Below the pieces are notes generated by a model. The model saw only the letters and a program-made list of their open reading frames with translations. It ran no database searches and was not told where the DNA came from. DNA of 64,000 nucleotides, from the IMG/VR virus record IMGVR_UViG_3300033146_004399, positions 115,367 through 179,366 of that record; one strand, written 5' to 3'. Made by a program: the position numbers and the translations under genes. The stretch's first letter is position 1. The number at the start of each line of letters is the position of its first letter. This DNA comes from a virus. This document shows, piece by piece, positions 3,315-63,531 of this stretch.

Positions 3315-4184
3315 TTATGAATTTAACTTAATAGCTGTAATAACCTCTTGCATTAGTCCAACGGTATCCCATGGGTTATCCATAATATCGTCGGTGACAT
3401 AAACCCAACCATAATATTCTAAAACTTCTGCAAATATAGTGGCATCGGCCCCAGCTAAAGCACCTACAGTTGAGGTATGTTTAAGAAGACCTCTTTTCCA
3501 TAGCTTAGAGCCACCAGGCCAAGGACCGTCGGTCATAGGTGAAGAAGGCCAAACTGAATTTTCCCATTCAATTACGATATCAAATATATCTTGGAATGCC
3601 ATTTCATCCAAATTATAGCCAGGATTTGAAACTGTAATTCCTAAACCAACTTCTCTAGCATAATCAGCTACTTCTAAATAGTATGCTAGTTCTTCTGATA
3701 AATTTGTAGTACCATCAGATTGTTCATCAAAGAAAATACCTGAGATTTCAGGGTAAAGACTTTTCCAATTATCTATAGCAGCTTTAACTGTAGTAACTGA
3801 AGCTGCTCTGTATTGTGTAGGAACATACCCTATTACTTTAATACCAGCAGCCTGCATTCTATTATGAACTTCTGTATATTGCGCGTCTACTGAAGCACCA
3901 GCTCCTTCATCTGGATTTGTAATAGCAATCATTGGAATTGTTCTATTTTTCCTTTTAAAATCAATTAATGAAAGATAATCTGCATTTGTATATGAATTTG
4001 TTGGATAAATATACATAGGAATTATTATTCCTGTTTGTTGTGATGAGGAGATTCCAGGACTCTCCATAAATCTTTTAAGTTTCGCGAGTGTTTCTACGCC
4101 GTCTGCAGCAGTCTGCCCAACAAGTATTTTGTCGGCAGTCGTTAACGTGCCGGCAGCAGCAATTGTACTAAAATCTTTAGCCAT
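3315..4184 (-). CDS. Spherulin-4 / GH135-like glycoside hydrolase with a tail-fibre-type N-terminal anchor
   Basis: IIIPMYIYP, IAITNP, KVIGYVPT, GIFFDE, VSNPG, DIVIEWE, YVYVTD-like motifs; first ~36 aa homologous to the N-terminus of fibre 6422..7414. Confidence 0.75.
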   Translation of the reverse strand: MAKDFSTIAAAGTLTTADKILVGQTAADGVETLAKLKRFMESPGISSSQQTGIIIPMYIYPTNSYTNADYLSLIDFKRKNRTIPMIAITNPDEGAGASVDAQYTEVHNRMQAAGIKVIGYVPTQYRAASVTTVKAAIDNWKSLYPEISGIFFDEQSDGTTNLSEELAYYLEVADYAREVGLGITVSNPGYNLDEMAFQDIFDIVIEWENSVWPSSPMTDGPWPGGSKLWKRGLLKHTSTVGALAGADATIFAEVLEYYGWVYVTDDIMDNPWDTVGLMQEVITAIKLNS

Positions 4185-4199
4185 TTTCTATCTCCTTAT

Positions 4200-4553
4200 T
4201 TATGCAATTCTAATTTCTAAATTATTACCATCTGATAACATAAACGCTTCTCCATCAATTGTAAAAGCATTTTCTCCAAATGCTACATTAGGTTGTACAT
4301 CATCAGTAAGATCGTCATCTTCTATAATGATTGCATTCTTAGTAAATGATGCAATTTTACCAGTAACATTCCATTCCATTGCTACACCAAAAACCTCTGT
4401 TGGTAAAAGTTCTGGTTCCGTAATTATTGTATCAGCATTTATAGCAGCGTCGTATAAAGACCTTGCACTTTCTACCAATTCGGTATCAGTAAAACTGCCT
4501 TTGTCTCTACGTCTAATTTGATATTTTATTTTTTTTAATCTATCTTCAATCAT
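4200..4553 (-). CDS. Fibre-associated adaptor protein (paralogue 3)
   Basis: Shares RLKKxKYQI, YDxAINAD, PTExxG...W and DDLTDxVxP with 7429..7791. Confidence 0.65.
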   Translation of the reverse strand: MIEDRLKKIKYQIRRRDKGSFTDTELVESARSLYDAAINADTIITEPELLPTEVFGVAMEWNVTGKIASFTKNAIIIEDDDLTDDVQPNVAFGENAFTIDGEAFMLSDGNNLEIRIA

Positions 4554-4554
4554 T

Positions 4555-5241
4555 TTACAACTCCTTTAAATATCCTTTATTAAAAAGATGATTTTTCACA
4601 CTTGGGAAAAATCCTCTTTTACCTAATTTAATTAATAAACCAACATGTTTAAATCCCCATCCGCCGAAAGGTACAAGAGGAACAATATCATGCCCATATA
4701 CATATCTTGTAGTCGCAGGTACCCTCTTATCATATGAAGCAGCTAAAGCCCCGTTACCAACCCTAGGGCTTCCGGTAGTCATACATTCAATTTCTAAGGA
4801 AGGAAAATTATATTGGAAGTCTAATGCCATTATAGTAGCAATAGCAGCTCCAAAACTTTGACCCATTATTATAATTTTCTTTCTATCTTTGATTATCTTA
4901 TGCATATCTTCTCTAATAAGTAAATAACTTTTATAAAAACCCCTATGCATTTTAATTTTTTTATTAGACCCTTTATACGGTGTTTTCATTAACGGGAAAC
5001 TAAGATTATACATCCAATCCATAAATTCATTTGAACCTAGAATAAATATAATTTCATCTCCGTTATATCTTCCGATAGCTATTTGAACATGTTTCTTTTG
5101 GAGAGTTGCAACTATGGTATTTATTTTTATCTCCCCTTTGAATACTTTTTTTCTATCTGCCGATCTTACATCCCAATATTTTTGAGCTATATAATGAATT
5201 AATTCTTTAGTCATTTGTAATCTCCTTACATTATCTTGCAA
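4555..5241 (-). CDS. Class 3 lipase (alpha/beta hydrolase)
   Basis: GQSFGAAIA nucleophile elbow, KMHRGFY, TGSPRVGN, DIVPLVP, HVG. Confidence 0.85.
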   Translation of the reverse strand: MQDNVRRLQMTKELIHYIAQKYWDVRSADRKKVFKGEIKINTIVATLQKKHVQIAIGRYNGDEIIFILGSNEFMDWMYNLSFPLMKTPYKGSNKKIKMHRGFYKSYLLIREDMHKIIKDRKKIIIMGQSFGAAIATIMALDFQYNFPSLEIECMTTGSPRVGNGALAASYDKRVPATTRYVYGHDIVPLVPFGGWGFKHVGLLIKLGKRGFFPSVKNHLFNKGYLKEL

Positions 5242-5262
5242 CTATTGTGCATACTTATTATT

Positions 5263-5685
5263 ATGGGTACAAACTATTACATAAGATATAATATTTGCTC
5301 TTGTTGTAACAGAAGTGATGAAGTGCATATAGGGAAGTCGTCTATGGGTTGGCAATTCACCTTCCATTCTGTAGATGATTATGATATCAAGATGTCCTCT
5401 TTCGATGCTAAAAATATGTTGGCAGAAGATGATTCTCATCTCATTATTAAGAGTTTCCAGGATTGGCGAAAATTCATTGAGAAATATGTTATAGAACAAG
5501 GAACTGCTAAAATATATAACGAGTATGGGGAAGAAGAGTCTGCACAAGAGTTTTTTAATTTGGTAGAAAGTAAGAGAGATGGTAAGAATCATGCTGAATA
5601 TATAAATAATGATTATACATCCATAGACCATGGAGATTATGTAGATGAGGAAGGATATTCCTTCTCACCAGGAGAGTTTAGCTAA
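5263..5685 (+). CDS. Hypothetical phage protein
   Basis: MGTNYY...CxxC...HIGKSSMGWQFTF, a motif I recall from conserved phage hypotheticals. Confidence 0.6.
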   Translation: MGTNYYIRYNICSCCNRSDEVHIGKSSMGWQFTFHSVDDYDIKMSSFDAKNMLAEDDSHLIIKSFQDWRKFIEKYVIEQGTAKIYNEYGEEESAQEFFNLVESKRDGKNHAEYINNDYTSIDHGDYVDEEGYSFSPGEFS

Positions 5686-11793: not shown

Positions 11794-12186
11794 ATGGATA
11801 TTTTTGAAACACTAGGCGAAGCAATTGATTACGCAACAGAATTAGAAAAAGGGATTCATAACACTGGAGTATTTAACACTGGAGTATTTAACACTGGTTT
11901 ACACGTAGATGTAGACACAAACGAAGATACTTATACAGTACAAGTTGAATTGCCAGGTCTCGATGAGGAAAACATAGATATTAACTACGAAAAGGATACT
12001 TTAACTGTTAAAGCTTCTTACGGAGAAGGAGGCTTGAGACGTGGAAATTATGAACGTACTTTTCCGCTCAGAGATGTAGACGCAACTAAGATTAATGCTA
12101 CACTTAATAAGGGTGTGTTGAAAATTGTACTTCATAAACTTGAAGAAAAGAAAGCAAGAAAAATAAATATTAATATAGGAGAATAA
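11794..12186 (+). CDS. Small heat-shock protein, Hsp20 family
   Basis: Alpha-crystallin motifs [40 protein letters not shown]; AGGAG RBS. Confidence 0.9.
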
Positions 12187-12188
12187 AA

Positions 12189-12776
12189 ATGAAAAACGTT
12201 TGCATTGGAATTGACCTTGGTACTACAAATTCATGTGTTGCTGTAATGGATGGTAAAGAACCCATCGTGATACAGAATGCTGAAGGCCAAAGAACAACAC
12301 CATCAATAGTTGCATTTACAGCTAAGGGCGAAAAATTAACTGGACAACCAGCGAAGAATCAGATTATTACAAATCCAGAAAATACAATTTATTCTGCTAA
12401 AAGATTTATAGGCAGAAAATTTTCTGAAGTTAAAGAAGAAATTGATATGATTCCTTACAAAGTTGTAAGCGGAAGTGGCTCAAGTGCGCGTATGCTTGTA
12501 CATGATAAAGAAGTATCTCCTCAAGAAATATCAGCAGCAGTCTTACAGAAAATGAAAAAAACAGCAGAAGACTATTTAGGAGAAAAAGTAACTGAAGCCG
12601 TTATTACTGTTCCAGCTTATTTTAATGACGAGCAAAGACAAGCTACAAAAGATGCTGGTAAAATTGCCGGCTTAGAAGTTAAAAGAATAGTTAATGAGCC
12701 TACGGCAGCAGCTTTGTCATATGGCTTTGACAGTATGAACAAAGAAGAGAAGGTTGCAGTTTTCGATCTCGGTGGT
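12189..12776 (+). CDS. dnaK: DnaK (Hsp70) exon 1, codons 1-196
   Basis: [37 protein letters not shown]; ends in VFDLGG. Confidence 0.97.
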
Positions 12777-13886
12777 AAATAATACTGCTTCCGTAAATGC
12801 CGTGAACTGCTGGAAAGTCCTTAGAGCTTAAATAACTACAACGTAATCAGTAATGATAAGCGTGAATGTTAAAAATATTTAAGATTGGGCAATCAGCATC
12901 CAAGCTGCCTAGAAATAGGTAGAAGGTTCAACGACTAGGTTATGGAGTCCTAACGTAAAGACGAGGACGGTAAAAACCCACGAGTGCGGCAAATTTTAAT
13001 TTTGTTTATAATATACGATCTTTGACATAATGACTAAAGATAAATATATGAAATATTATATTTATAAAACAGTTAATTTATTAAATAATAGATATTATTT
13101 TGGCTGTCATGCTACGGATAATTTGAATGACAATTATTTAGGTTCTGGTAAAATTTTAAAGCGTGCCATTAAAAAATATGGTAAAAATTGTTTTAAAAAA
13201 GAAATAATTGAATTTTGTGATTCTATGACAGATATGTTTCTAAAAGAAGAAAAATTGATAACTATTGATGTTGTTAATGATCCTATAACATATAATTGTT
13301 GTTTAGGTGGTAGAGGTGGATATAGAAATATAAGTGATATTGGCAAAAAATCAATTTCTAATGCTAGAAAAAATAAAGTTGTAATAAAAGAAAATGATGA
13401 TACGTATAAAGTAATAGATAAAGAATTATTTGATAAGAAAAAAATGCATGGCGCCACATATGGTAAAACAACAGCTAGAACAATATCTGGTAAATATATC
13501 GTTGTTACAAATGATGAATTTACTAATAATAGTGAATTAGTTGGTACTACTAAAGGTAAAACAGTAGTTAAAGATATTACTGGTAAAATAAGTGTAGTTG
13601 ATGTAAATGATTATAGAATTAAAACTGGTGAATTGGTTGGAATAACAAAATATTCAAAACAAACACCTGAATCTAATTTAAAAAGAAGTTTAACATTAAC
13701 TGGATATGTAAGAGGCAAACAAAAAATTGTTCGATGCCCACATTGTAATAAAACCGGTGGAATATCTAATATGAAAAGATGGCATTTTGATAACTGTAAA
13801 TATAAACAAAATTAAAATTAAGATATAGTCTGAACTGTATTGAAAGATACAGAGGTTAAGATAAAGAACTTAACGATAACATATTG
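12777..13886 (+). ncRNA. Group I self-splicing intron (IA-like) in dnaK, 1110 nt
   Basis: Exon ends in U and intron ends in G; P GAACTGCTGGAAA 12804-12816, Q AATCAGCATCCAAG 12891-12904, R GTTCAACGACTA 12926-12937, S AAGATATAGTCT 13820-13831; P3 TGCCGT/GCGGCA; perfect 19-bp P8 (12992-13010 with 13801-13819); P9 with GAAA tetraloop; removal restores DLGG|GTFD. Confidence 0.95.
13030..13815 (+). CDS. Intron-encoded GIY-YIG homing endonuclease (Seg-like) in the P8 loop
   Basis: YYIYKTVNLLNNRYYFG...YLGSG...AIKKYG..FKKEIIE; C-terminal CPHC..GG...MKRWHFDNC. Confidence 0.9.
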   Translation: MTKDKYMKYYIYKTVNLLNNRYYFGCHATDNLNDNYLGSGKILKRAIKKYGKNCFKKEIIEFCDSMTDMFLKEEKLITIDVVNDPITYNCCLGGRGGYRNISDIGKKSISNARKNKVVIKENDDTYKVIDKELFDKKKMHGATYGKTTARTISGKYIVVTNDEFTNNSELVGTTKGKTVVKDITGKISVVDVNDYRIKTGELVGITKYSKQTPESNLKRSLTLTGYVRGKQKIVRCPHCNKTGGISNMKRWHFDNCKYKQN

Positions 13887-15149
13887 GGTACATTCGATAT
13901 ATCTATTCTAGAACTTGGAGACGGGGTATTTGAAGTTAAAGCTACAAATGGTGATACCCATCTTGGTGGTGATAATTTTGATCAAAGAATAATTGATTGG
14001 TTGATTGACGGTTTCAAAAAAGATTATGCTATTGACTTATCACAGGATAAGATGGCTTTGCAACGGTTAAAAGAAGGAGCTGAAAAAGCTAAGGTTGAAT
14101 TGTCAACAGCACAAGCTACAAATATCAATCTTCCATTTATAACAGCTGATTCATCAGGGCCTAAGCATCTTCAGGTAGATTTAACACGTGCTAAGTTTGA
14201 ACAGTTGGTTGATGACCTTGTACAAAGGACTAAACAACCATGTCTTAATGCGATTAAAGACTCTGGTTTTAAAGTAGAAGATATCGATGAAGTTATTTTA
14301 GTTGGAGGTTCGACTCGTATTCCAGCGGTTCAGGAAATAGTAAAAGAAATTTTTAAGAAAGAACCTAACAAAAGTGTTAACCCGGATGAAGTAGTTGCTC
14401 TCGGAGCTGCTATTCAGGGAGGTGTATTATCGGGTGGTGTTAATGACATCCTCTTACTTGATGTTACTCCCCTTTCTTTGGGTATTGAAACTTTGGGTGG
14501 TGTAATGACTAAGTTAATTGATAGAAATACCACTATTCCAACTAAAAAAAGTCAAACATTTTCGACAGCAGTTGATAACCAACCTGCTGTGTCAATCCAT
14601 GTCCTTCAAGGTGAAAGAAAGGTTGTTAGTCAGAATAGAACATTAGGTAATTTTGATTTAACAGATATACCTCCAGCTCCTAGAGGAGTACCACAAATTG
14701 AAGTTAGTTTTGATATTGATGCTAATGGTATAGTACACGTGTCTGCAAAAGATCTTGGAACAGGAAAGGAGCAAAAAATAAAAATTGAATCTTCATCCGG
14801 TCTTTCAGATGCTGAAATAAATAAAATGGTTAATGACGCTGAAGCTAATGCTGAAGCAGATGAATTAATAGTAGAAAAGATTCAAGTTAAGAATGACGCT
14901 GATAATCTTATTTATTCAACAGAGAAAACTTTGAAGGATTTCGGGGATAAAATTGCGGAAGAAGATAGAATAAATGTTGAAACTGCAATATCGGATCTAA
15001 GAGCTTCCTTAGACGGAGAGTTGGATGAACTTAAAATAAAATTTGAAGCGTTACAGCAAGTCGCACATAAAATTGCAGAAGCTGTATACACTGAAACTAA
15101 TGATGCTACTGAGTCCGAGGATTCAGATTATGAAGTAGTTGACGAATAA
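13887..15149 (+). CDS. dnaK: DnaK (Hsp70) exon 2; spliced product 616 aa
   Basis: [56 protein letters not shown]. Confidence 0.97.
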
Positions 15150-27255: not shown

Positions 27256-28839
27256 TTGACTCGTTCAGATTTAATAAAGTACGCAAATAAAAATTTATTT
27301 GTAAATGGGAAGTTTAAAGGTATACGTAAAAATAGTATTCATTTTAATTTATTAAATGATTGTTTACCTAATAAAGAATATGATATATTAGAAAGATTTT
27401 ATTTATTTTATAATAATATAGAAACACCACCTCGTTGTATATGCGGCAAAAAATTAAAAATATTTCGTTGGTCAAATGGATATAATAAGTTTTGTAGTCC
27501 AAATTGTGGAGGCGTTGAATCAATTAAAACAATAAAAGTTAAATATAATGTGGATAATGTGTTTAAATTAGAATCTGTTAAAAGTAAATCTAAAAAAACT
27601 AAAAGTGAAAAATACGGTGATGAAAATTATAATAATAACAGTAAAGCTATAGAAACAAATATAATTAGGTACGGAGTTTCTAATACTTTTCAACTTACAA
27701 ATCGTATCACTGGAACAAATATAAAAAAATACGGTGTTAAACATAATTCATATAATAAAGATACTATTGAAAAAAGAAAATTAACTAGACTTAAAACTTT
27801 CTTTAATAATATCATAAAAAGAAATGATGATATTATTCCTTTATTTAACATAGATAGTTATCACGGGATTGATAGAAAAAATAAATATTCTTGGAAATGT
27901 ACAAAATGTGGCAATATATTTAGCGATCATTTAGATGATGGACATATACCAAGATGTTTAGTATGCAACCCAAAACTTGTTGGTATATCTAGTTATGAAC
28001 AAGAATTAAAAAATTTTTTAAATTTATATAATATAAAATTTGAAAGTAATTCTAGAGAATTAATTAAACCTTTAGAACTTGATATTTATATTCCTTCTCA
28101 CAATTTAGCTATTGAATTTGATGGCCTTTATTGGCATTCAGATGAATTTGTGGATAAATATTATCATTTAGATAAAACGCTAGAATGTGAAATGAAAAGT
28201 ATACAATTAATACATATATTTGAAGATGAATGGGTTAACAAAAGAAAAATAGTAGAAGCACGCCTAAAAAATCTATTAGGTTTAAATTCTAGAAGGATAG
28301 GAGCTAGACAAACCACTATAAAAGAAATAGATGCTAAAACTAAAAATACCTTCCTTAATACTTTTCATATACAAGGTGAAGATAAAAGTAGTATTAAATT
28401 AGGTGCTTATTACAATGATGAATTAATTGGTGTTATGACTTTCGGTAAATTAAGAAGATTTATGAACAAAATACATGTTGATGGAAGTTGGGAATTAATA
28501 AGATTTGTTACAATATCTGATACATGGACGCCAGGATTAGCTTCTAAGATGCTTATTTACTTTGAAAAAGAATGGAAACCAAAATTAATAGAATCATTTG
28601 CAGATAGAAGATGGAGTCAAGGTAATTTATATTATAAATTGGGGTTTAAATTTGATAAGCAAACAATACCTAATTATTATTATTCTAAAAATTTAAAACG
28701 TTATCATAGATACAAATTTAGGAAGAGTGAATTAAAGAATTTCGATAATTATTCAATAGATAAAACGGAGTTTCAAATAATGGATGAAGCAGGATGGCTA
28801 AGAATATATGATTGTGGTAACTACAAATTTGTTAAATAA
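27256..28839 (+). CDS. Hef-like homing endonuclease
   Basis: CPxC-type zinc sites, ELDIYIP..NLAIEFDGLYWHS, then ARQT..KEI, VMTFG, WELIRF, SFADRRWS, IYDCG. Confidence 0.8.
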   Translation: MTRSDLIKYANKNLFVNGKFKGIRKNSIHFNLLNDCLPNKEYDILERFYLFYNNIETPPRCICGKKLKIFRWSNGYNKFCSPNCGGVESIKTIKVKYNVDNVFKLESVKSKSKKTKSEKYGDENYNNNSKAIETNIIRYGVSNTFQLTNRITGTNIKKYGVKHNSYNKDTIEKRKLTRLKTFFNNIIKRNDDIIPLFNIDSYHGIDRKNKYSWKCTKCGNIFSDHLDDGHIPRCLVCNPKLVGISSYEQELKNFLNLYNIKFESNSRELIKPLELDIYIPSHNLAIEFDGLYWHSDEFVDKYYHLDKTLECEMKSIQLIHIFEDEWVNKRKIVEARLKNLLGLNSRRIGARQTTIKEIDAKTKNTFLNTFHIQGEDKSSIKLGAYYNDELIGVMTFGKLRRFMNKIHVDGSWELIRFVTISDTWTPGLASKMLIYFEKEWKPKLIESFADRRWSQGNLYYKLGFKFDKQTIPNYYYSKNLKRYHRYKFRKSELKNFDNYSIDKTEFQIMDEAGWLRIYDCGNYKFVK

Positions 28840-49818: not shown

Positions 49819-51552
49819 TCATTTCACTTCTCTCATCATAGATTCAATAAGACCAGTACCACGTTCTTTGCTTCTTTTTACTGATTGATGATAATTACCT
49901 CTCCAATGTCGTACAATTCTTTCTTTATAATCTAGATTATCAGGATCTTTAGTTTCTTTTTCTTTTTTTGGATTATTAGTTTTTGTATCAATCTCAGTAA
50001 AGAATGATTTAATAATGAGTGGTATATCTTTTATCTTCTCTTTATACCCAATTTCTAAGTGATGAGTTATTTTCCCATTCATACCAATCTTTGATATAAC
50101 TCGTCTTAGATGATCTTTATACTTCTGTTCTTGGAATTTAGCATTTGTTTTATGCCAATATTTTACTTTCTTATAGTGTTGCTGCCCATGGTATTCTATA
50201 AATACGTTAAATTTCGGCATGAGCACTATAAAATCCATCCTTTTATTTCGACCAGTATCTGGTAATTTTTTATCAGCAGAGAGACTATTAATATCAAATG
50301 GTTCTTCTTTTTTTACGTATTCAGTATATTTATCTTTAAACTTGTTTAGAAGTGCATTTGTTATAGCGTGTTCACCTAATGATTCTTTTTTAGTTACTAT
50401 ATCTTTTGCTGATAGATCATTTTTACCATCTGCGTCCTTTTGAAATTTAAATGTATATCCGCTAACAGAATAACGCTCAGTACTTAATACAGATAATATT
50501 TTTTTATAATCTATATTTAATTTTTCTCCTGCTTCTTGGACATTATCATATTCATTTTTGTATTTACCGTTTATAGATTCATATGCACATACGGGTTCAA
50601 CTAAAGTAAGTTTTGCACAATTTGGACAACCATGACCTTCTACAGCATGACCTTGAATCGTTTGAGTAATTTCACCAAATCTCTCATGACCATGTTCGTG
50701 ACATATATATCTTAATTTAGAATTTTCTTTATTAACAGTACTTGAAGTGGCTCGTGCGTATTTTGGTATAAAAGTATATTCATAGTTCTTATCACCATGT
50801 TTTTCTTGACATAATTCTTCTACTTTTTTTCTTCCCATGGCTTTTTTATCAGCAAGGTGATTTTTAGATTGTTGATAAGACATAGAATTACCTGATACCA
50901 TAACTGGATATTCTTCGCCTGTATCATCATTAATAAATACAACATATTTTTTTTTATTAGTTTTCTCGCCTTTTTTCTGTAATTCATCTCTTTTTTTATT
51001 ATATCTACCTGTAAGAGGTTCCCATGGTGTTGTACCATTACTTCTCCAATAACCAGCATACATTTCATTATTATGTAACTTAACACGGTTCCAATCTTTA
51101 AAAAACTTTTTATCTATTTTAAGTTTAAATTCTTCCCACGGTATTGTTCCGTATTTTTTTTCTTTTTGTCTTGTACGTGTTACGCCTATTAAATTACGTT
51201 CGCTTCTTCTTTTCGCGGCATCTCTTTTGCTAAGAGATCCTTTACTTAAATGAGTTGAGAACGTTTCTGGCGTTTGTTTTTCACCATCAACATAATATAA
51301 AACTTTTCTGGTTCTTTCAACACCTGGTGTTTTCGGGGCTATCCATTTCTTAAATTCTTCGTCTTTTACACTCCATAATCCGTCATTAGTATTTGGATTA
51401 ATTTTATATTCTATCCTTTCCCATTCCCAACCTTTTTCCAAACATCTCTTTTTAAATTCAGGTTCAACTTGAGTTGCCCAACACTGTTTTATACCCGGTA
51501 CTGATCCAGTTTTTTCATTTAATTGTTGATTCATATTTTCAAGTATTTTCAT
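49819..51552 (-). CDS. Large endonuclease-like protein (zinc motif, NUMOD-like segment, C-terminal PD-(D/E)XK)
   Basis: CHEHG...GHGCPNC; RMDF...FIEYHGQQHY. Confidence 0.65.
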   Translation of the reverse strand: MKILENMNQQLNEKTGSVPGIKQCWATQVEPEFKKRCLEKGWEWERIEYKINPNTNDGLWSVKDEEFKKWIAPKTPGVERTRKVLYYVDGEKQTPETFSTHLSKGSLSKRDAAKRRSERNLIGVTRTRQKEKKYGTIPWEEFKLKIDKKFFKDWNRVKLHNNEMYAGYWRSNGTTPWEPLTGRYNKKRDELQKKGEKTNKKKYVVFINDDTGEEYPVMVSGNSMSYQQSKNHLADKKAMGRKKVEELCQEKHGDKNYEYTFIPKYARATSSTVNKENSKLRYICHEHGHERFGEITQTIQGHAVEGHGCPNCAKLTLVEPVCAYESINGKYKNEYDNVQEAGEKLNIDYKKILSVLSTERYSVSGYTFKFQKDADGKNDLSAKDIVTKKESLGEHAITNALLNKFKDKYTEYVKKEEPFDINSLSADKKLPDTGRNKRMDFIVLMPKFNVFIEYHGQQHYKKVKYWHKTNAKFQEQKYKDHLRRVISKIGMNGKITHHLEIGYKEKIKDIPLIIKSFFTEIDTKTNNPKKEKETKDPDNLDYKERIVRHWRGNYHQSVKRSKERGTGLIESMMREVK

Positions 51553-55384: not shown

Positions 55385-56936
55385 TCAGGGTAAATCCTTA
55401 ATATCAATCTGAGTATATAAAAGTTGTCCATGAGGAACTTGAGTCAATCCATATCGTGCTAAGAAACCACGTCTTGGGTTAAAATCATTTTCACCCACGA
55501 ACAGGTGTGAGGTTAGTTACATATGGACTATAGACCAAACCAGCGCCAAAAGGAGACTGAGGAGATTTGTGACCCATAAGAATTTTGTCATCTGGAAACA
55601 TAGGATCTTTATAGATATCATATCGACCAGCATAAGTACCGGCTTTAACAATATTCATACCCATGGAAGCAGTAACAGGATTAGGAATGAAGCCTTTAAG
55701 AACTTCAATATAAGAAGCAACTTTAGTACCAACAATCATCCAGTTAGCAGGACCAATTTTTGATTTTCTGAATACTTCATTACTAGCTCTAGTAACTTTT
55801 TGCATAAGAGCTAAGTGAGCATCAAGGTAATTACCTGATGTGTTGTTCTGAGCAAAAGAATTCCAGTCATAAGTAAAGCGTGAAGATGCAGGAACAAGAG
55901 TCATAACTTTTTGAATTATCTCTCTGTCTATTTCAGCAATCATTTCGTTAGAAACAAGAGCTGTAAGTTCAGCATCAGCACTTAAACCATGATAAGCCTT
56001 TAAATCTTGTTCAGATTCTTGTGACCACATAGCTTTGAGCTTACGAGTTTTAACAGCAACAGGAATGTTACCGATTGTGATTCTCATCTCAGGAATTTGT
56101 TCTGTAAATTCAAGATCAGTTTTGTACCAAGCTTTAATAGCAGTTTCAGCACCAGCTTGAGCACCATTGTAAACAACTTTAAGATTTCCAGCAGCATAAG
56201 TGATAGTAAAATCACCGTTTAAAGAACCAACTCTATCAGCGCTTCTTACTTGAAAGTTAGTAGCATCAAGTGAAGAGAAGGAAAATGTTTCTGAGAAATC
56301 ATCAGCACCAGTTAATTCAATAGTACCAAGAATCATAGCTGAATTTTCAACATTAACAGCACCGGCAGTTGCCTGCATTGGCCAAATGTTTTGAATAGCT
56401 GTTTTAGGAGCAGCAGAAATAACACCATTAAAAGTTCTAGGTGGAAGTACATCAGGGTTGATATCAATGTCTGCGTCAGCACTACCAACAGCAGAACCAG
56501 AGAAAGGTCCAATTTCGTCGGTGGAGTAGTAAGGATTATATCCTTCCTGAGCACCAGCTTGTTCTTCAAACATAGAGTATTCAGGATAATCAGTACCTGT
56601 ATAACCACTAGCTGGGTTACCTGGTCTTTCTGTTCCCATCTGATACTTTAAGTAAAAGATGATACCTGCAGGAGCCGCAATTGGCTGTACAGATACAATG
56701 TTATTTGCAATTAAGTTAGGGAATACACGTCTAACTATAGGAAGCATGATTTTTTGAAGACCTTGTACATCACCTTGAGTGGTTGCACCAGGAGCTTCTG
56801 TTAAATATTTTGCTTCATTTTCTAGAAGAATAGCAGTATTTTCTACTGTATATTCATCTGAGATACCTTCGAGAAATGGTGACCATTTCTTAAGAAGTCT
56901 ATCTTTTTCTTCTTTCATTAATCTTTGAGCGTCCAT
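55385..56936 (-). CDS. gp23: Major capsid protein (T4 gp23-like) with an apparent frameshift near 55497-55502
   Basis: LLKKW, TAILLEN, VRRVFPNLIA..IVSVQP, TRKLKA.W..E..QDL.A.HG; the conserved tail VGENDFNPRRGFLARYG...DLP* lies in another frame (55498-55385). Confidence 0.9.
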
Positions 56937-60192: not shown

Positions 60193-63100
60193 TTATTTAC
60201 TCATCTTCACCTTTTCGTTTAATGTGCGCTGTATTTTATTTGAGCTTCTATAGGCTTTTAATAAACCCCTAAATTCTCCCTCAATGATCATTCGGGTTGC
60301 ACTATTCTTTTGCTCATATTTTATCTTGTCACTATTATTATCTTTATGTACTTTTTCGTAAAGATTAACATATTTTAATAATTTTTCAACATCTTTATTG
60401 CTTTCAAAGAGCCATTTACCACCATCAAACTCTATAAAATTGGCTCCAGCAACTTCTAATCCTGCTTCTCCGCCACCAGCAGGAGGTGCTTCACCGCCAG
60501 CAGGTGCTTCTTGCCCTCCCATTCCACCTTCAGGAGGTCCACCAGCTGCTCCGCCAGAAGCTCCACCACCCATTATATTGCCACCAAGATTTCCACCGCC
60601 AGCCATATCCATTCCTCCACCAGCAGATGCACCAAGATTTTGCATTTGAAGTTGCATCTGCATTTGCATTTGAATTTGCAATCTAATCTTCTGTATTTCT
60701 TGTTCAGACATACCAAGTATTTCTTTGTAAATCCATTCATCAGGTAAAAAGTTCTCTAACGTTCTAACTTGTTGTATAAGGGCAAATTGTTGATTTCTTA
60801 TCTCTATTTCCATTAACTGGTCTACATTAGATGGAGGTGTTAATTTAATTTTAAAGTCTCTTATTTCTTTAGAATCTATTTTTGAAAATACCAATTCAAT
60901 AAGAGCAATTTTTTCTAAACCTTTAATAATTAACTTCTGTATTCTTTCTATAGTTCTTGAAAATTGAACTTCTTGATTGGAGAGATACGATTTAGGGTCA
61001 TATGTTCCTGCACCAGCATCAGATGAATTACCACCAAGGTAACCAGTAGGAATACCCATAGTTCTTAATATTTGATCTTTGAAATATTTAACATCATCTA
61101 TCTCACCTAAATTTTGCCCACCAGGAAGTGTCTCAATTCTTGTCCCTTGACTATTCTGCCTTACGGGAATATAAAAGTCTTCGTCAACCGAATTATGAAC
61201 AAATACACCAGCTTCAGTTGCAAAGTTGTGATACTTCTCGATAGTTATATCACCAGTATCTTCTTTATAATCAAGCCATTCTATTTTAGTGACTTTATGA
61301 TTTTGATAATTTGACTGTTTAGATAAAAGTCTCAATTCTTTCCACGATTTCAAGCTCAATTTGTTTAAAATATTATAGTATTGCTTTCTACTAATTTCTT
61401 CTTGTAGTATAAAGTCTTGCATTTTATTATACTCAGAAGCTTTATCTAAGCAAATTGTTTCTATATTATCTAATCTTTGTGTTATAGAACTTAATACATT
61501 ATAATTATTTCTGATTAATACATTTTTTATGTATGTATATAAAAATCCGTTTTCTTTACAAAAGTTTGTAATTTCGTGTGAATATATTATAGCATTTTTT
61601 GTAAAATGTTGATCAATAACAAGTAATGTTTCTTCTTCCTTTTTTTTCATTTTTTCTTGAAATTTTTGAGTAGCAAGTTTTGTGTTTGGTGTTCTAAGAC
61701 TTTTAGTTTTTACTCCGCAAACTTCTTTTAACCACTGTTCGGAAGATTCATATCCTATTTCTCTCATAGCTTTTACAATAAAATGTGCATTAGGACCATT
61801 TACTTGTTTATTTGGTTTACAAAAGGTTTTCCATTCTTGCATCAATTTATTGTTGTTACACGCATTTTCCATAACATTAACGATAGATATATAGCCTTGA
61901 CTATTTGGCTGTGTTTCTTGTGCTATATTTTTCAAAAGAGACCAAAATTTATTTGTGACTTTATTTCTTATGGTCATCCCATTGATATATTTTTGTCTTA
62001 ATTTTGGATCAGAGAATTGCTTTTTCATATTTTTCGATCTTATATCGTTATAAATGTAAGACATATTTTGATGTAATTTTCTATGATTACTAAATGACAT
62101 TACTTTTAAATTATTAGGAGTATTGTTTAATTTATTAAAATCTTTGTGATGAATCGTTTTATTATTGTTAAAAGATGTAAATTTTCTATTTTTCCAATCA
62201 TCATACATATTTCCTACTAATCTGTGAGTATATTCATATTTACTAGTTTTTGGATTATATATTTTTTCATAACCATCAATTTTATCCCTATCTTCTTTAG
62301 AAGACAGTTTAGTATAGAATGGCATTAAAGCTTGTCCGTTTTTAAGATCTTGCGCTTCGCAATAAGAACCATCCCGCAACATAAATCTATGGTCTGGTGT
62401 TGTTCTCAATTCCTCGCCATTATCTAAAGTTACTTTAATTAATTTTGCATTCTTTCTAGTTACATCCGCCCATATAATTTTACCAGGTACTATTTGATTA
62501 TCATTTTCAACATCTATAGAATATGTCCAATTTTCATTACCAGATTTATATTCTTCAATCAATTCTGTTAGTGAAAGACTTCGACCATCTAAAAGTGGAA
62601 TTTTAGTATCTAAAGTTATACATAAAGGATTTGCCTTTTCATCTACTTCACCTGTTGTAGGATTAATAAATTTCTTTTTGCGGAATTGTCTTTTCAACGT
62701 TTCCATAAATTTATTAGCTTCTTTAGTTGGCATGGTACCGACATCTACATAAAATACTCTTCTCTCTGGAGCTCTTGATATTCTATATATAAGCATAGCG
62801 TCTTCCATAAGAGAAAGTTTTTTAAATGTCTTTCTGCCTGATTCTAATATAGAACGACCATATGGTTCAAATTCTTCATCCTCAATCCTGAAGTGAACAA
62901 TCTGCCATGGTTGAAAAACTCTATTTTCCTTCTCTTCATCTTCATATTCATATCTGAATTCAATAAGATTACCTTCCCTCTCAACTCTCTTCATATTCTC
63001 AGGTTTCTTAATTCTCTCCAAGGAGATTATATGTTTTGGATTATCTACGTTATCTACTATAACTTCAAGGAATTCATCACCTAATTTACAGGTATTTCTT

Positions 63101-63531
63101 ACTATGGACCAAAGATTAGAATTCATATCTAAATTTTCAAACATTAATTTATCAACAATTTCAATAATTTTATTGTTATCTGAACCAATTTCCATAACAT
63201 TTTTTTGAACATTAAATTGAGTTCCATTATCTGCATAAATGTTAATTGATTGATTAAGTTCAGGAATACGTATCATTTCTCTATATTCTTTATATCGAGT
63301 TGTACGATTGTTTGATGTTACAGTAGCTTCTTCAAGCCATGCGAAGGACTGCCAGCCAGGAGCATATGAGCCTTGATCTTTTGCAACTTCGGAAGGAACA
63401 TTTAAATCACGAGAACGGATTTTATATTTATTAATAAAATCTTGAATTTTTTTAGCGTTTTTATCAACTTTATTTTCACTAGTACTGTCGCCCTTACCAC
63501 CAAAAAAACCCCATCCGGTCTGTCCTGCCAT
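60193..63531 (-). CDS. gp20: Portal protein (gp20-like) containing an intein; about 635 aa after splicing
   Basis: YGRSILE..RK..K.L.LMEDAMLIYRISRAPERRVFYVDVG; EDFYIPVR; GTRIETLPGGQNLGEIDDV.YF. Confidence 0.95.
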   Translation of the reverse strand: MAGQTGWGFFGGKGDSTSENKVDKNAKKIQDFINKYKIRSRDLNVPSEVAKDQGSYAPGWQSFAWLEEATVTSNNRTTRYKEYREMIRIPELNQSINIYADNGTQFNVQKNVMEIGSDNNKIIEIVDKLMFENLDMNSNLWSIVRNTCKLGDEFLEVIVDNVDNPKHIISLERIKKPENMKRVEREGNLIEFRYEYEDEEKENRVFQPWQIVHFRIEDEEFEPYGRSILESGRKTFKKLSLMEDAMLIYRISRAPERRVFYVDVGTMPTKEANKFMETLKRQFRKKKFINPTTGEVDEKANPLCITLDTKIPLLDGRSLSLTELIEEYKSGNENWTYSIDVENDNQIVPGKIIWADVTRKNAKLIKVTLDNGEELRTTPDHRFMLRDGSYCEAQDLKNGQALMPFYTKLSSKEDRDKIDGYEKIYNPKTSKYEYTHRLVGNMYDDWKNRKFTSFNNNKTIHHKDFNKLNNTPNNLKVMSFSNHRKLHQNMSYIYNDIRSKNMKKQFSDPKLRQKYINGMTIRNKVTNKFWSLLKNIAQETQPNSQGYISIVNVMENACNNNKLMQEWKTFCKPNKQVNGPNAHFIVKAMREIGYESSEQWLKEVCGVKTKSLRTPNTKLATQKFQEKMKKKEEETLLVIDQHFTKNAIIYSHEITNFCKENGFLYTYIKNVLIRNNYNVLSSITQRLDNIETICLDKASEYNKMQDFILQEEISRKQYYNILNKLSLKSWKELRLLSKQSNYQNHKVTKIEWLDYKEDTGDITIEKYHNFATEAGVFVHNSVDEDFYIPVRQNSQGTRIETLPGGQNLGEIDDVKYFKDQILRTMGIPTGYLGGNSSDAGAGTYDPKSYLSNQEVQFSRTIERIQKLIIKGLEKIALIELVFSKIDSKEIRDFKIKLTPPSNVDQLMEIEIRNQQFALIQQVRTLENFLPDEWIYKEILGMSEQEIQKIRLQIQMQMQMQLQMQNLGASAGGGMDMAGGGNLGGNIMGGGASGGAAGGPPEGGMGGQEAPAGGEAPPAGGGEAGLEVAGANFIEFDGGKWLFESNKDVEKLLKYVNLYEKVHKDNNSDKIKYEQKNSATRMIIEGEFRGLLKAYRSSNKIQRTLNEKVKMSK
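61192..62622 (-). mobile_element. Intein (477 aa) with HNH endonuclease in the portal gene
   Basis: Starts CITLDTKIPLLDG, ends GDITIEKYHNF...GVFVHN followed by Ser; internal THRLVG...IHHKDFNKLNNTPNNL HNH motif. Confidence 0.92.

Follow-up and report, generated by a model that had tools for sequence, protein, structure and literature searches.

The window analyzed here is the whole stretch of 64,000 nucleotides, the last 64 kb of the 179,366-bp IMG/VR virus record IMGVR_UViG_3300033146_004399 (CheckV completeness 63%), and it carries a dnaK gene that is interrupted by an insertion of 1110 nt at positions 12777-13886. The insertion is very probably a mobile, phage-type group I intron of subgroup IA that interrupts dnaK in a large tailed phage and encodes a GIY-YIG homing endonuclease. 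We could find no earlier description of an intron in a phage dnaK, although one in a viral Hsp70 gene has been described before. An earlier note on this DNA had proposed a group I intron with a homing-endonuclease open reading frame (ORF) in a phage-encoded dnaK, and the ribozyme core, its covariation, the GIY-YIG fold of the encoded protein and the head and portal genes of the phage all bear this out. Positions are those of the window, and the features described lie on the + strand unless marked (-).

The two parts of the gene flank the insertion without gap or overlap. Exon 1 (12189-12776, 196 codons) ends in ...FDLGG and matches positions 2-195 of the Pfam HSP70 profile (E 2e-91), and exon 2 (13887-15149, 420 codons and a stop) starts with GTFDIS and matches positions 196-598 (E 1e-167). 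Joining 12776 to 13887 yields FDLGG|GTFDIS with the profile positions abutting at 195|196, so that excision of 12777-13886 restores the DLGG|GTFD motif exactly as the earlier note had stated; together the exons cover positions 2-195 and 196-598 of the 599 in PF00012, a full-length HSP70 domain. Read through the exon boundary, the frame of exon 1 continues for two codons into the insertion and then stops (AAA TAA). This in-frame stop rules out an intein removed at the protein level, which we consider extremely improbable even though the length of the insertion is a multiple of three and the portal gene of the same phage does contain an intein: no intein domains were found in the insertion, the endonuclease ORF begins with a start codon of its own, and the ribozyme evidence accounts for the insertion.

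A group I ribozyme within dnaK

The group I core of the insertion is complete, comprising P1, P3-P9, P7.1/P7.2, J6/7, J8/7 and the P7 guanosine-binding helix, and a family profile built for nhmmer recognizes it in two segments (158.9 and 59.6 bits). All of the core elements listed in the earlier note were located, among them U12776·G12787 at the start of the guide GCUUCCG, a 19-bp P8, P9 and the terminal G13886. P1 (12770-12793) is formed by the exon sequence CGGUGGU (12770-12776) and the internal guide GCUUCCG (12787-12793), with the U12776·G12787 wobble at the splice site. P3 pairs 12798-12804 with 12985-12991. The P4-P6 domain (12808-12926), within which the helix labels were assigned in this analysis, contains P4 (12808-12813/12893-12898), P5 (12817-12820/12887-12890), P5a (12827-12834/12876-12883), P5b (12846-12849/12854-12857), P6 (12900-12901/12925-12926) and P6a (12905-12911/12916-12922). 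Just 3' of a conserved J6/7 (UUCAAC) lies the 5' strand of P7, GACUA (12933-12937), which pairs with UAGUC at 13826-13830; J8/7 together with this 3' strand of P7 (AAGAUAUAGUC, 13820-13830) is identical to the Rfam consensus.

Between P7 and the 3' strand of P3 (12938-12978 region) there are two further helices, P7.1 (12938-12941/12975-12978) and P7.2 (12947-12951/12964-12968), the second read from the sequence only. P2 is absent from the intron. An insertion of P7.1/P7.2 at this place is the criterion for subgroup IA, and together with the similarity of the core to that of a Twort-like phage it indicates that the intron is IA-like, that is, of the phage type. Specifically, the 5' core from P3 to P7 is 82.7% identical over 135 nt to a region of the lysin-gene intron of a Twort-like Staphylococcus phage (phage K lys-I1 type; OQ129426), the nearest ribozyme that we found in an annotated record; this stretch includes most of the P4-P6 domain, and blastn also matches the core to other phage introns. 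The OQ129426 intron differs in that it interrupts an endolysin gene, has an ORF annotated as an AP2-domain protein, and has a different exon context and guide.

P8 is a 19-bp duplex of 12992-13010 with 13801-13819, and the endonuclease ORF lies in its loop. Downstream of P7, a 7-bp P9 hairpin with a GAAA loop (13835-13852) is followed by P9.1 (13855-13874), a 6-bp hairpin whose AUAAAGA loop (13861-13868) is conserved across most of the family, as is the GAUAACA (13875-13881) that precedes the terminal G13886. Conservation of these two segments suggests tertiary contacts or a P9.0/P10-type pairing. A possible partner for P10, UACU at 12783-12786, could pair with GGUA at the start of exon 2 (13887-13890); this putative pairing, read from the sequence, is weak and is not conserved in the family.

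To evaluate the helices we used 33 joined intron cores of the family that occurs at the same dnaK codon. Paired cells made up 95% in P3, 97.5% in P4, 94% in P6a, 98% in P7.1, 82% in P8 and 100% in P9, compared with 20-55% in a control in which the 3' partner was slid along the alignment. Pairs changed on both sides were found at 4/7 positions in P3, 1/6 in P4, 7/7 in P6a, 4/4 in P7.1, 14 of the 18 pairs counted in P8 and 6/7 in P9. P5a (81% paired, double changes in 8/8 pairs) and P9.1 (81%, 6/6) behave similarly and P7 is 99% paired and invariant; covariation is present in P3, P5, P5a, P6, P6a, P7.1, P8, P9 and P9.1. In a set of 26 3' ends, 91.4% of cells were paired versus 64% in shuffles (0/500) and 31-59% in slid controls, the covariation score was 0.73 versus 0.20, and P9 had not a single broken pair. 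The splice-site U·G of P1 is present in 33/33 members, and the guide tracks codon changes in the exon at -7 to -9: at -7 the pair is U-A in 26 introns, C-G in 4, G-C in 1 and A-U in 1, and at -8 it is U-A in 15 and G-C in 11. Position -4 of P1 (12773 with 12790 in the window) is a U·U mismatch in 31/33 introns and G-C in the two whose exon reads GGG in place of GGU.

Covariation of the helices is strong evidence that the ribozyme is under selection and therefore that the intron splices. It speaks strongly against a broken or split gene, in which insertion of an endonuclease gene would have turned dnaK into a pseudogene or into two fragments that are translated separately. Although viral HSP70 genes described as fragmented, and possibly giving two proteins, have been reported (PMC12978162), we regard this as very unlikely here: without splicing, the ribozyme would not have stayed complete and shown compensatory changes in each of its variable helices, both exons are under strong protein-level conservation and abut precisely, and the only start codon upstream of exon 2 is a TTG overlapping the final 3 nt of the intron.

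In the splicing pathway that we propose for the group I intron, the whole dnaK gene would be transcribed with the intron included, and the ribozyme would fold with P1 formed from exon CGGUGGU and guide GCUUCCG, the P3-P9 core, and P7.1/P7.2 at the periphery. Free guanosine would attack after U12776, and the released exon 1 would then attack after G13886. The product would be an mRNA for a 616-aa DnaK in which the DLGGGTFD loop is intact.

The GIY-YIG endonuclease and its dnaK-dedicated lineage

The ORF in the P8 loop (13030-13815, 261 aa) matches phrog_314, 'homing endonuclease', with E 5e-39, and its end overlaps the 3' strand of P8, which contains its last codons and stop (13813-13815). It has more than 1000 homologues, many of them with GIY-YIG and NUMOD3 Pfam domains, and of 20 relatives that were aligned, 18 gave matches to PF19835 and PF01541 at E<=0.01. 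The window protein has YIY at residues 10-12 and YFG at 23-25, and it retains all of the family-invariant residues (Y12, Y23, G25, H27, E73, N89, C236, C239, H252 and C256), the tyrosines of the GIY and YIG motifs among them; E73 and N89, which are invariant in the 20 relatives, have a spacing that seems to resemble that of E75 and N90 in I-TevI. An AlphaFold model has a mean pLDDT (predicted local distance difference test score) of 87, with residues 8-90 above 90, and the top three fold matches to it in the PDB are all the catalytic domain of I-TevI (including 1mk0/1ln0), at probabilities of 1.00-0.97, target template-modelling (TM) scores of 0.61-0.65 and 24-26% identity; the best two have probabilities of 1.00 and 0.98 and a target TM score of 0.65. 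The predicted architecture combines a catalytic domain like that of I-TevI with a linker that contains repeats and, at the C terminus, a zinc module of the form CxxC...H...C. Judged by its modelled fold, the 261-aa protein is an intact GIY-YIG endonuclease, and it is presumably an active one.

The closest functional parallel is the td intron of phage T4 with its endonuclease I-TevI, likewise a phage IA-type group I intron with a GIY-YIG endonuclease whose ORF end overlaps a core helix. The ORF of the td intron sits in P6, whereas that of the window intron sits in the P8 loop, and the target genes differ, thymidylate synthase in T4 and dnaK here. The endonucleases differ as well: their sequence similarity lies under hidden Markov model cut-offs although the I-TevI catalytic domain is the best structural match, and in place of the zinc finger, minor-groove helix and helix-turn-helix of I-TevI the C-terminal half of the window protein has VGxTKG-type repeats and the CxxC...H...C module. 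By analogy with I-TevI, the endonuclease would cut intron-less dnaK alleles of co-infecting related phages near the insertion site, and repair from the intron-bearing copy would then spread the intron by homing.

Relatives of the endonuclease indicate a lineage dedicated to dnaK. We examined five of the closest (P0002, 64% identity; P0003, 60%; P0005, 45%; P0011, 42%; P0010, 40%), and all of them are flanked by HSP70 fragments, an N-terminal one of 194-203 aa on one side and a C-terminal one on the other. The contigs are phage-like, come from different samples and encode Hsp20, GrpE or FtsH in the neighborhood, and the introns are 74-84% identical to the window ribozyme. A ribozyme tree places the six GIY-YIG introns in one group (support 89/99), and the phage-like loci L051, L080 and L093, all with the other endonuclease family, form a distinct clade (100/100); the backbone of this tree is weakly resolved, and it leaves out L083, L089, L092, L101, L105, L107 and L111, whose cores were not cut automatically. 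L051 lies on a 410-kb record with an HK97-type head protein; a search of the L051 and L080 records for capsid families of nucleocytoplasmic large DNA viruses gave no match and is uninformative, since control genomes gave none either. The ribozyme family is also present at the same codon in many giant-virus Hsp70 genes and in other large phages, the six GIY-YIG introns forming a phage-borne branch of their own. This dnaK-dedicated GIY-YIG lineage, in place of the endonuclease usual in the family, is the particular feature of the window intron.

Two relatives that are more distant occupy different positions. P0013 (42% identity; L129:2501-3304) is free-standing just 5' of an uninterrupted dnaK (3428-5308) in which the target motif is altered to FDCGS|GTHD; it has TTGACT/TATAAT promoter-like boxes and no flanking ribozyme, and it looks like a free-standing stage of the same endonuclease lineage. 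P0025 (40% identity; L130:2270-3417, on a 372-kb contig) lies in a homologous intron (nhmmer 143 and 51 bits) that occupies a second site in dnaK, some 35 codons further downstream; this site reads ...GDTFLGG|EDFD and likewise follows GGTGGT. This second site is empty in the window dnaK. In the giant-virus-like loci L101, L102, L105 and L111, each with two intron cores, both sites are probably filled. The GIY-YIG branch thus exists in three states, namely free-standing beside an intact dnaK, in the DLGG|GTFD intron, and in a homologous intron at the second Gly-Gly site, and the series offers a natural test of the way in which mobile introns arise from the union of an intron with a free-standing endonuclease. 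The passage of such elements from one virus realm to another could be traced with it as well.

Several results weigh against a mobile group I intron with a homing endonuclease. For the ribozyme, RF00028 gave no match at its gathering threshold (50 bits) anywhere in the window, nor was there one in E-value mode on the 64 kb or in a whole-genome family search. The search with RF00028 that the earlier note had suggested succeeded only in part: restricted to 12600-14100 in E-value mode, it gave two half-matches on either side of the ORF, neither of which reaches gathering. The 5' half-match (12754-13050, 27.7 bits, E 1e-4) includes P1, P3, P4-P6, J6/7, the 5' strand of P7, the 3' strand of P3 and the start of P8, and the 3' half-match (13734-13852, 34.9 bits, E 8e-7) includes the 3' strand of P8, J8/7 with P7, and P9. 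In addition, P1 contains the U·U mismatch and P10 would have 4 bp at most. For the endonuclease, Pfam SegE_GIY-YIG (PF19835) scores 22.1 bits under a cut-off of 25 and TIGR01453, 'group I intron endonuclease', 26.8 bits under a cut-off of 56; the Foldseek E-values to I-TevI are weak (0.06-0.3); and sequence searches of the PDB gave chance matches only with the single endonuclease and none with a 20-sequence profile. The RF00028 scores are explained by the 786-nt ORF in the P8 loop, which splits the model. Five ORF-less homologues at the same dnaK codon (320-417 nt) score 73-93 bits, above gathering.

That the endonuclease scores under the curated family cut-offs would also fit an intron that splices but whose endonuclease no longer acts in homing, being inactive, an RNA-folding aid or a self-repressor, such that the element is inherited only vertically within a phage clade. 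With every close relative of the ORF already in a dnaK intron, few empty target alleles may remain in that clade. Nevertheless, we think this unlikely. The endonuclease has kept all of its family-invariant residues, including putative catalytic and zinc-binding ones, and its fold is modelled confidently, and the ORFs have stayed open at 40-64% identity, a sign that the protein is under selection. Elsewhere in the family, ORF-less introns show that an ORF without a use disappears, and related viral contigs do contain intron-less dnaK alleles, in which 36-38 of 48 bases around the site match. A mobile intron with a functional endonuclease thus remains our preferred interpretation.

One intron family at one Hsp70 codon

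Taken singly, the element is an ordinary one, a group I intron of a phage that encodes a GIY-YIG homing endonuclease, and its value lies in the family around it. Insertions at exactly this codon were found in 10/80 of the closest viral DnaK/Hsp70 loci. A search of viral contigs with the junction pattern GGTGGTAAA...CTGCYTCC...GTKAAYTGC yielded 35 loci, all of them Hsp70/DnaK genes interrupted at this codon, and with loci found via the endonuclease the total is 50 loci with 40 distinct introns of 320-2711 nt, mostly in metagenome-assembled genomes (MAGs) of giant viruses and in several large phages. The insertion site is thus to a large extent already catalogued and common, a circumstance that the earlier note had said would count against its claim.

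The P8 loop of the 40 distinct introns holds a member of a large unnamed endonuclease family in 26, a GIY-YIG ORF in 6, a third kind of ORF in 2 (L083 and L101) and no ORF in 6. Within one ribozyme family, the same P8 loop thus houses ORFs from at least three families that are unrelated to one another. In the 26 introns, which come from giant viruses and large phages, the ribozyme is homologous to that of the window whereas the ORF is unrelated, and the window intron with its five relatives forms a separate branch of the tree. Pfam identified no family for the large intron ORFs of L051, L054, L063, L080 and L081, and PHROGs gave a weak match to phrog_15137, 'endonuclease', for only two of these five.

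A group I intron in an Hsp70 gene, which the earlier note's author had not been aware of, was in fact published in 2012: megavirus and moumouvirus share one in their HSP70 gene, and that of moumouvirus has no endonuclease ORF (PMC3542560). Intron-containing or fragmented HSP70 genes have since been reported in Megavirus courdo11 and Yasminevirus in a paper that lists hardly any phage HSP70 (PMC12978162, 2026), and large aquatic phages with DnaK, DnaJ and Hsp20 have been described with no mention of an intron (PMC12619734). Our literature search for an intron in a phage dnaK found no paper; PMC6330437 mentions dnaK and group I introns in unrelated contexts. The megavirus and moumouvirus introns resemble that of the window in being group I introns in a virus-encoded Hsp70, with or without an endonuclease ORF, and differ in that their hosts are giant viruses of eukaryotes whereas the window belongs to a tailed phage. 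Giant-virus MAG contigs carry homologous ribozymes at exactly the window codon, and the endonuclease common in giant-virus introns belongs to a family unrelated to the window GIY-YIG protein; the published megavirus intron was compared by its description, a comparison that does not extend to the codon.

The same junction pattern, applied to 185,579 prokaryote species that were each represented by one genome, gave a single match, on a 3-kb contig of a lake MAG binned as 'Proteobacteria' (L128; RFNV01000065.1, 3069 bp). This contig encodes a giant-virus-like Hsp70 with an ORF-less 322-nt intron and has about 80% nucleotide identity to the L101 and L102 loci; from these sequence features it is probably viral DNA that was mis-binned. 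With one match among this many species genomes, cellular dnaK is therefore not colonised by the intron family, and the earlier suggestion that the element might invade the host dnaK is unsupported.

This result also bears on whether the endonuclease cuts the dnaK of the host, and of rival phages, at the site encoding DLGGGTFD, with the intron-bearing phage copy being immune and the enzyme serving as a weapon for host shut-off or exclusion. The DLGGGTFD motif is universal in Hsp70, the phage supplies its own DnaK, DnaJ-domain protein and Hsp20, and I-TevI, like other GIY-YIG homing enzymes, still accepts target sites that carry many substitutions. Against this, the intron family has its one cellular-set match on a virus-like contig, and nucleotide identity around the site is only about 33/48 even among viral alleles (median for intron-less alleles against the window 33/48 bases, maximum 38/48). 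Cleavage of a host dnaK allele is unlikely, and we give the weapon role as a whole little credence; were it true, a selfish element would have become a weapon by which the phage set of DnaK, DnaJ and Hsp20 takes the place of the Hsp70 system of the host.

For the mobile intron that we favor, the broader significance is that a single ribozyme lineage occupies one codon, universally conserved in Hsp70, in eukaryotic giant viruses and bacterial tailed phages alike. That lineage is nearly absent from cellular genomes, and the endonuclease genes in its P8 loop are of at least three unrelated kinds. A practical consequence concerns annotation: where a viral dnaK/Hsp70 call is split at this codon, the two parts should be annotated as a single gene joined by splicing.

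The phage and its other selfish elements

The record is that of a tailed phage, with a T4-like portal gene (60193-63531 (-)) and a gene for an HK97-type major head protein (55491-56936 (-)). Searches over the 179-kb record with nhmmer, blastn and tblastn found one dnaK and one such intron, and no further intron copies or endonuclease paralogue. Directly 5' of dnaK exon 1 is a gene for an Hsp20 small heat-shock protein (11794-12186; Pfam HSP20, E 1e-15), an arrangement also seen 5' of the split dnaK in the related intron-bearing loci L117 and L126. A DnaJ-domain protein (305-aa frame) is encoded by the phage outside the window (G000:C1:102191-102367), and GrpE was not found in the available part of the record, which is 63% complete.

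The phage carrying the dnaK intron is rich in selfish nucleases. Within the portal gene (Pfam Portal_T4) lies an intein (Intein_splicing, aa 312-780) that encloses an HNH endonuclease domain (aa ~415-491); it is the second selfish element that this phage has in an essential gene. Two endonuclease-like genes lie elsewhere in the window: one at 27256-28839 (527 aa) matches phrog_3339, 'homing endonuclease', with E 1e-124 and has a weak Mom-like region, and the other at 49819-51552 (-) (577 aa) has an I-HmuI NUMOD-like segment.

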